DNA of 64,000 nucleotides from an uncultured Dehalococcoidales bacterium (lineage in GTDB: Bacteria; Chloroflexota; Dehalococcoidia; Dehalococcoidales; E44-bin46): assembly GCA_964627215.1 (NCBI GenBank), contig CAZVIZ010000001.1, positions 145,395 through 209,394 on the forward strand. Reading direction: 5' to 3'. The position numbers were made by a program, and so were the translations under genes. Numbering within the stretch: position 1 is the stretch's first letter; every line of letters begins with the position of its first letter. Shown here in pieces: positions 4,917 to 5,337 of this stretch. A model generated the notes under the pieces. The model saw only the letters and a list, made by a program, of their open reading frames with translations, was not told the origin of the DNA and did no database searches.

Positions 4917-4947
4917 ACGTTGTTTGCTCCTACGGAGGTAAGGTAAG

Positions 4948-5337
4948 ATTTACGCGATTGTAGAGACAGGTGGTAAACAGTATCGGATAAGCCCGGGCCA
5001 GACGGTTGATGTGGAGCTTCTGGGTGTTCCCCAGGGCGAGAGTGTGGAGTTGGACAGGGTTCTACTGGTGGCTGACGGCGATAAAGTAGCCGTGGGCACC
5101 CCCGTAGTTGAGGGAGCCAAGGTAGTGGCCACATCACAGGGTGAGGACAAGGGTGATAAGGTGATAGTGTTCAAGTATAAGAATAAGGTGCGCTACCGCG
5201 TTAAGCGCGGGCACCGCCAGCCTTACACCAGGCTCAGTATAGACAATATAGTGGCTGCGGGCATAGAGCCCGCCAAGACAGAGAAGCCGAAGCAGGCTGT
5301 GAAGCCCAAGAAGGAGGTAGCCGCCGATGGCGCATAA
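4948..5337 (+). CDS. rplU: 50S ribosomal protein L21, start reassigned to ATT at 4948
   Basis: In-frame reading upstream of the track start gives (I)[25 protein letters not shown], the universal L21 N-terminus. In-frame TAA lies at 4939-4941, so only GGT, AAG and ATT precede [13 protein letters not shown] is at 4934-4938. Confidence 0.85.

Follow-up and report, generated by a model that had tools for sequence, protein, structure and literature searches.

Does the rplU gene of this Dehalococcoidales genome, which encodes ribosomal protein bL21, really begin at an ATT codon, and if it does, is that codon merely tolerated or has it been selected? A sequence-only reading of the 64,000-nucleotide stretch analysed here (the window) claimed that ATT is the only start open to rplU, and that AUU/AUA initiation is unusually frequent in the same region, where hisA and purM would also use it. 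We think it very probable that rplU is translated from AUU at 4948 and that this start is an old feature of a clade within the Dehalococcoidia, maintained by selection; a role in tuning is what we infer for it. The locus is laid out as follows:

4887-4916, plus strand: sigma-70-type promoter of the rplU-rpmA-rpmE operon (TTGACA at 4887-4892, an 18-nt spacer carrying TG, TAGAAT at 4911-4916)
4934-4938, plus strand: GGAGG Shine-Dalgarno core (GGAGGU when extended), with a 9-nt spacer to the ATT
4939-4941, plus strand: in-frame TAA three codons 5' of the ATT, with only GGT (4942-4944) and AAG (4945-4947) between them
4948-4950, plus strand: ATT initiation codon of rplU (bL21), assigned from its anatomy, its profile and structure register, its conservation and the constraint on it
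4951-4953, plus strand: second codon of rplU, TAC, which never varies behind the ATH start of relatives
4948-5337, plus strand: rplU coding sequence, 129 codons plus TAA
5327-5581, plus strand: rpmA (bL27), whose ATG overlaps the end of rplU and which has its own Shine-Dalgarno, AAGGAGGT
5589-5795, plus strand: rpmE (bL31), with an ATG start
5821-5847: terminator-like hairpin 3' of rpmE

The ATT is followed by the codons TAC GCG ATT GTA GAG ACA GGT GGT AAA CAG TAT, that is, directly by the conserved N-terminus of L21. Since the in-frame TAA closes the frame at 4939-4941, no upstream start is possible in the window, and the first in-frame ATG, GTG or TTG is GTG 5011, which is codon 22 counted from the ATT (residue 24 of the open frame) and would cost the protein 21 residues. 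The coordinates on which the sequence-only reading had built this argument are all correct, and its conclusion that rplU can start only at the ATT stands, with the TAA, the GGAGG 9 nt away and the conservation throughout the clade of an ATT with a well-spaced Shine-Dalgarno all in its favour. The rplU site pairs with the anti-Shine-Dalgarno at -10.8 kcal/mol and ranks with the strongest sites of the window.

The family register points to the same codon. TIGR00061 (L21, NCBIfam) matches with 114.5 bits against a cutoff of 43.7, its positions 1-101 corresponding to residues 4-104 of the stop-to-stop frame, and position 1 of this profile falls on the Tyr right after the ATT; position 2 of NF008916 aligns to that same Tyr, so that its position 1 is the ATT codon itself. 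When the ATT is read as Met, residue 1 aligns to residue 1 of the bL21 chains in the solved Thermus and Staphylococcus ribosomes (MFAIVKTGGKQYRV, MFAIIETGGKQIKV). Residues 1-101 of the product align to residues 1-99 of the T. thermophilus chain and to residues 1-101 of the S. aureus chain, with E-values for bL21 matches in the PDB down to 1.7e-28. That the protein belongs to the bL21 family (TIGR00061, PF00829) follows from a full-length profile match, an M-[YF]-A-[IV] N-terminus and the rplU-rpmA operon context. The gene order coaE-rplU-rpmA-rpmE-DUF1385 is common to the window and to two related loci, L081 and L085. Within the operon, rpmE has no recognisable Shine-Dalgarno (the sequence upstream of it is gctgaataaccatatt); it starts 8 nt past the rpmA stop, and its translation may depend on coupling to rpmA. 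On the other side of rplU, at 1768-4124 on the minus strand, lie AmmeMemoRadiSam genes (a fused B+A protein and a radical SAM enzyme), next to one for a dGTP triphosphohydrolase; they have no bearing on the rplU start.

It could still be argued that L21 is made from GTG 5011, as a product of 108 aa, and that the 21 codons upstream are untranslated; this is what the gene callers chose, and a weak Shine-Dalgarno-like match does precede some internal codons. Against this, the 21 codons are conserved as protein, with synonymous variation, they make up positions 1-21 both of the L21 profile and of bL21 in the solved ribosomes, and the strong Shine-Dalgarno is positioned for the ATT and not for the GTG. 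We have rejected this start as highly improbable on the strength of the profile and structure register and of the protein-level conservation of these codons.

A second objection would be a sequencing or assembly error, either one that turned a true ATG into ATT (a single base, T4950 against G, parts the two) or a frameshift that hides an upstream start. This is vanishingly improbable. The Logan assembly of SRR8146443 is identical to the window over the promoter, the Shine-Dalgarno and the ATT, and ATT or ATC stands at the same codon in eleven related genomes and in at least 119 metagenome loci from many samples; the Logan assembly and the relatives together exclude the ATG-to-ATT error at 4950 that the sequence-only reading had itself raised. 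Near hisA and purM, which we discuss below, the out-of-frame ATGs hit stops within a few codons.

These relatives deserve a closer description. One genome per GTDB species was scanned, the best L21 match being 67% identical, and the eleven closest genomes are labelled Dehalococcoidia or Chloroflexota, one of them as 'Bacterium HR24'. Codon 1 of their rplU is ATT in nine and ATC in two; in other phyla the L21 gene starts with ATG. With the window counted as a twelfth genome, seven have no in-frame ATG, GTG or TTG between the upstream stop and the ATH; the canonical codons found upstream in the remaining five have no Shine-Dalgarno (weaker than -5.1 kcal/mol) and all but one lie at least 7 codons off, near or before the predicted transcript start. 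Anti-Shine-Dalgarno energies range from -9.5 to -12.1 kcal/mol at all 13 of the 13 related ATT/ATC rplU loci. Two further genomes, L023 and L032, provide a natural control: in their sequence ATG-GCG-CAG-ATT-TAT the Shine-Dalgarno fits the register of the ATG (-9.1) and not that of the ATT (-1.5).

A wider sample came from metagenome contigs, searched with the pattern GGAGG-N4-10-ATH-TAY-GCN-RTN-RTN-GAR-ACN-GGN-GGN-AAR-CA, which matched at least 120 stretches, 119 of them distinct among the matches listed. This pattern requires ATH and therefore gives no ratio of ATG to ATH, which rests instead on 120 protein matches. The start codon of the 119 loci among the matches listed is ATT in 115, ATC in three and ATA in one. 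The spacer between Shine-Dalgarno and start, again among the matches listed, is 6 nt in 71 cases, 7 nt in 24, 8 nt in 19, 9 nt in four and 10 nt in one, and never 4 or 5 nt, though the pattern permitted both. Among the same matches, 63 of 118 loci offer no canonical codon in frame between the upstream stop and the ATH. The comparison of orthologous 5' ends thus has ATH at the same codon, with a Shine-Dalgarno 6-10 nt upstream, in the 11 genomes and at least 119 metagenome loci; a recurrence in at least 130 sequences besides the window goes beyond chance. The Shine-Dalgarno sequences of these genes are not stronger than those of rplU genes with ATG starts in other phyla (Mann-Whitney p = 0.98); they are merely uniformly strong. 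With a conserved N-terminus at the ATH, no canonical alternative, functional spacing and conservation beyond the neutral expectation, rplU has the properties of a non-canonical start led by a Shine-Dalgarno, and judged by these comparisons its ATT is a real, conserved AUU start.

The promoter is conserved as well. In the window it matches the consensus at 11 of 12 positions and predicts a transcript start near 4922-4924, which leaves rplU a leader of about 25 nt. Among 131 sequences (the metagenome part being the matches listed), 111 have a TTGAC-N16-19-TAnnnT promoter at most 70 nt upstream of the ATH, and in the related sequences that carry it, among the matches listed, the -10 hexamer ends 18-39 nt, mostly 20-31 nt, before the ATH; this position confirms the short leader. 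A leader of this size has no room for a feedback structure. An Rfam scan of 4700-5200 gave no match at the gathering threshold or at E<=1, and in particular no L21 leader, and the fold of the rplU leader is nothing unusual (z = 0.16). The L21 leader of Bacillota (RF00559), which precedes rplU and is the presumed regulator of this operon there, is thus absent here. Elsewhere in the window, Rfam reports a 5_ureB_sRNA (RF02514) at 22000-22298 on the plus strand, with 43.5 bits against a gathering threshold of 40; this match lies in antisense over the 5' portion of the gene for the urease alpha subunit (20742-22466, minus strand) and probably reflects conserved coding sequence of the urease and not a real sRNA.

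If the start is so well conserved, one may ask how it is represented in public annotation. An Ile immediately precedes YA[IV] in 116 of the 120 nearest L21 entries. The upstream "extensions" of these entries vary greatly in length and sequence, contain translated Shine-Dalgarno motifs (GG, RR, EV) and run back to whichever TTG, GTG or ATG the gene caller found. Two extended cases were read in DNA: the called GTG or TTG abuts the GGAGG, with a 0-nt spacer, and an ATT follows 6-8 nt downstream. We have rejected upstream extension in the relatives on this ground, the codons chosen by the gene callers sitting directly on the Shine-Dalgarno. Three of the 120 entries begin with MYAI, and both of those checked have ATT in their DNA; they come from the loci L081 (GCA_011192105.1) and L085 (GCA_023129255.1), whose NCBI annotations start at the ATT, so that the NCBI pipeline already accepts an ATT start in some MAGs. 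In L081 NCBI also annotates an ATA as the start of hisA, and in all such ATT/ATA starts are annotated in some related MAGs for rplU, hisA and hisI.

The genome from which the window comes has fared less well. Its public L21 has 108 aa, from GTG 5011, and its PurM 299 aa, both truncated; its L21, PurM and HisA calls lose 21, 34 and 14 residues respectively, the HisA loss including the IIPAID motif, and the full-length forms of these three proteins of the source genome are absent from a collection of 15 billion proteins. Our literature search found no paper on non-canonical starts in Dehalococcoidia or Chloroflexi, or on an AUU start of rplU, and it brought up neither proteomic N-termini nor Ribo-seq for this lineage. 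Members of the Dehalococcoidia abound in sediments and aquifers, and most of what is known of them comes from MAGs whose genes were called by programs that accept only ATG, GTG and TTG, so that such errors at the N-terminus are systematic.

How general is this kind of start in the window? About 60 of its ORFs, those of the ABC transporter region at 23.5-31.5 kb excepted, were scanned against NCBIfam as stop-to-stop translations, and 44 gave a family match. The profile begins upstream of the first ATG, GTG or TTG in exactly three of these 44 genes, rplU, hisA and purM, the last two with the following starts:

7834-7832, minus strand: ATA initiation codon of hisA (gene 7121-7834), with GGAGG at 7847-7843, an 8-nt spacer, an in-frame TAA at 7855-7853 and a duplex energy of -13.0 kcal/mol
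44306-44308, plus strand: ATT initiation codon of purM (gene 44306-45307), with GGAGG at 44293-44297, an 8-nt spacer, an in-frame TAG at 44279-44281 and a duplex energy of -11.6 kcal/mol

The first canonical start of hisA is a GTG at residue 21 of its open frame, and its use would delete the conserved IIPAID motif, which holds the catalytic Asp. At the M-E-IIPAID position of 37 related loci we find ATA in 19, ATG in 12, GTG in one, ATC in one and ACG in two, while the other two have no start-type codon there and start elsewhere. The two hisA genes with ACG (L116 and L203, minus strand) carry it where relatives have ATA or ATG, with AAGGAG 8 nt upstream and no canonical start, and this ACG may be their initiation codon. 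For purM the first canonical start is an ATG at residue 43 of the open frame. About half of its 120 nearest homologues read ...(RRAEP/QEGKP)-I-KET/YA, that is, a translated Shine-Dalgarno and then Ile; other near homologues begin with MKET or VKET, and one relative checked in DNA uses GTG. Both the hisA ATA and the purM ATT claimed by the sequence-only reading are therefore forced non-canonical starts behind a GGAGG at 8 nt, and both recur in relatives.

In hisI, NCBI annotates an ATA start in L085 (11771-12100, minus strand), and the gene of another related locus (L177, 1169-1529, minus strand) is forced to be non-canonical, with 30 residues between its conserved N-terminus and the first canonical codon downstream. 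The hisI gene of the window itself (6774-7100, minus strand) starts with TTG, at 7100, as do groEL (55114), purH (45357), purF (42868) and the DUF1385 gene (5871). TTG starts are common here, even on a gene expressed as highly as groEL, which agrees with a preference for ATG that is relaxed in general. An all-versus-all survey of 134 related loci suggested further families with forced non-canonical starts, DUF1385, rpmE and a MEMO1-like gene, which turned out to be false positives (shadow frames and conserved translations of terminators or Shine-Dalgarno sequences); on inspection, rplU, hisA and a few hisI were all that remained.

The frequency of such starts can be compared with two well-studied genomes. 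E. coli has two confirmed non-canonical starts genome-wide, infC and pcnB, with AUH and CUG yielding 1-2% of the output of AUG (bioRxiv 10.1101/063800), and S. aureus has four AUU/AUA starts, all behind extended Shine-Dalgarno sequences, with about 10% of AUG output (PMC13009471). The 64-kb window has three against the two of the whole E. coli genome, and its density is some 30-fold higher than in S. aureus (3 of 44 evaluable genes against four per genome). The rate is thus far above the usual one, and the suggestion that AUU/AUA initiation is unusually frequent here holds for the profile-matched genes of the window.

These observations raise the possibility that the rplU start means nothing in particular. 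Because the start codons of hisA, purM and hisI interchange with ATG, GTG and TTG among relatives, the sequences suggest that AUH behind a strong Shine-Dalgarno is generally tolerated in this lineage. One could go further and suppose that its ribosomes and IF3 discriminate poorly against AUH in this setting, that an ATT is as good as an ATG, and that the one in rplU persists by inertia as a neutral relic. The occurrence of AUH on several unrelated housekeeping genes would fit, as would the use of TTG even by groEL and the way in which the codon flips in relatives, among ATA, ATG, GTG, ATC and ACG for hisA and among ATT, ATG and GTG for purM. We nevertheless find this explanation unlikely for rplU, where the codon hardly flips at all: at least 118 of the 120 nearest homologues have ATH, and ATG, which is one transversion away from ATT, is essentially absent from them. 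A neutral site should resemble hisA.

The contrast with neighbouring sites in the same genes is also hard to reconcile with inertia. In the twelve genomes Ala3, Thr7, Gly8 and Gly9 show a full mixture of bases at their third positions, whereas the start codon ends with T in ten and with C in two. Among the metagenome matches listed, the same genes encode internal Ile by ATT 440 times, by ATC 201 times and by ATA 210 times (52% ATT), against the 115, three and one at the start. All 131 sequences among the matches listed have TAC as their second codon, although the pattern allowed TAT; in the metagenome part of these matches this makes TAC 119 and TAT none, against TAC 150 and TAT 249 (62% TAT) for the other Tyr codons, and Tyr12 alone is TAT in 79 and TAC in 31. 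Upstream, and again among the matches listed, 127 of the 131 sequences have a purine at position -3, and 122 of the 131 have A or C at position -2. The internal ATT of L023 and L032 is followed by TAT, and the sequences that start with ATT (L089-L208, L001-L016) use TAC. All these sequences are phylogenetically related, so that formal p-values overstate their independence, a reservation that does not affect the contrasts made within genes.

Because the second codon is fixed, and the start codon and positions -3 and -2 nearly so, amid nearby synonymous sites that are saturated, the AUU of rplU and its immediate context appear to be under selection. The frozen context R(-3)-A(-2)-N-AUU-UAC is a new element with respect to known non-canonical starts. 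We would therefore distinguish two layers: in hisA, purM and hisI the AUH looks tolerated, whereas in rplU the AUU looks selected, as a weak or special start.

What might it be selected for? In the reading that we prefer, namely an AUU start kept by selection, the consensus-like promoter would give an mRNA with a short leader of about 25 nt, strong pairing with the GGAGGU would place the 30S subunit, and the initiator tRNA would read the near-cognate AUU to produce a Met-Tyr-Ala-Ile-Val start, as in other bL21 proteins. The weak codon would then tune L21 synthesis, or make it sensitive to initiation capacity (the level of IF3, or ppGpp and IF2), and would take the place of the feedback through the mRNA leader known from other bacteria. 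In vitro, IF3, nutrient limitation and ppGpp preferentially disadvantage non-AUG mRNAs (PMC5499595). That the AUU tunes the output of L21 or ties it to initiation capacity is our best available functional guess, because no leader RNA element is present and because of these published effects of IF3 and ppGpp.

A more specific form of this idea would make the codon a sensing device, similar in kind to that of infC, through which L21 output, and hence 50S assembly, follows the status of IF3 (or of ppGpp and IF2). A weak codon that is strongly conserved in a frozen context is what such a device would look like, there is neither room for nor sign of a feedback element in the leader, nutrient limitation, ppGpp and IF3 preferentially inhibit non-AUG mRNAs (PMC5499595), and Deinococcus offers a precedent with its rpsL CTG and dnaA ATC (PMC2830850). 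This form remains a tentative one in our opinion, to be regarded as doubtful. The regulation is something that we infer here, feedback through IF3 would not obviously stabilise the number of ribosomes, so that the homeostatic logic of an IF3-responsive ribosomal protein is not evident, and L27 and L31 of the same operon use ATG with signals of their own. Genes for infC and the initiator tRNA were sought in the window and the related loci and none was found. Besides, the low output of AUU elsewhere (1-2% in E. coli, about 10% in S. aureus) sits badly with a ribosomal protein needed in stoichiometric amounts, unless the lineage is different in this respect.

Comparison with the systems already described helps to locate what is new. 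As in infC and pcnB of E. coli, the AUU lies behind a Shine-Dalgarno, the codon is conserved among relatives, and the initiator tRNA is expected to insert Met; unlike them, the gene concerned is a stoichiometric ribosomal protein and not IF3 or a low-abundance enzyme, and no autoregulatory logic is evident. In infC-type autoregulation the regulated gene encodes IF3, whereas here it encodes bL21; the comparison with infC drawn by the sequence-only reading is no more than an analogy. The likeness to S. aureus cvfC1 (AUU) and to ccpN, citZ and infC (AUA) lies in strong or extended, well-spaced Shine-Dalgarno sequences and in the conservation of codon and Shine-Dalgarno together (PMC13009471); the S. 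aureus targets, however, are regulators and small proteins made at about 10% of AUG output, and those in the window are rplU and biosynthetic enzymes. In Deinococcus, dnaA starts with ATC, rpsL with CTG and infC with ATA, with peptide evidence (PMC2830850). There too, non-canonical starts are conserved across a lineage on core housekeeping genes, including one for a ribosomal protein, and were first betrayed by heterogeneous annotated N-termini; the phylum, the genes and the codons are different, and the peptide-backed Deinococcus cases contrast with an rplU start known from sequence. The class of mechanism is thus the known one, a non-canonical start led by a Shine-Dalgarno, and what is new is the genes (rplU, hisA, purM), the lineage, the density and the frozen context.

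One may be tempted to combine all this into a bolder scenario, which we mention as a speculation and think rather unlikely to hold in full. Start selection in Dehalococcoidia would have been re-tuned, through IF3, the initiator tRNA or 16S rRNA, so that AUU and AUA behind GGAGGU are efficient and are read in context (a purine at -3, A or C at -2, and UAC); the use of AUH by housekeeping genes at the percent level would be normal for the class, and the AUU of rplU would be a deliberate control point coupling 50S production to initiation capacity.

Whatever the fate of this scenario, the finding has a practical side. Standard gene finders mis-annotate rplU, hisA and purM in these organisms, and the N-terminus is right in only three of the 120 nearest L21 entries and extended or truncated in the others. 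At the level of mechanism, a stoichiometric and essential ribosomal protein on an AUU codon with a frozen context conflicts with the picture drawn from E. coli, and makes this group a natural system for asking how the stringency of start-codon choice varies among phyla. Finally, the fixed ATT of rplU set against the free interchange of codons in hisA separates non-canonical starts that are selected from those that are tolerated.
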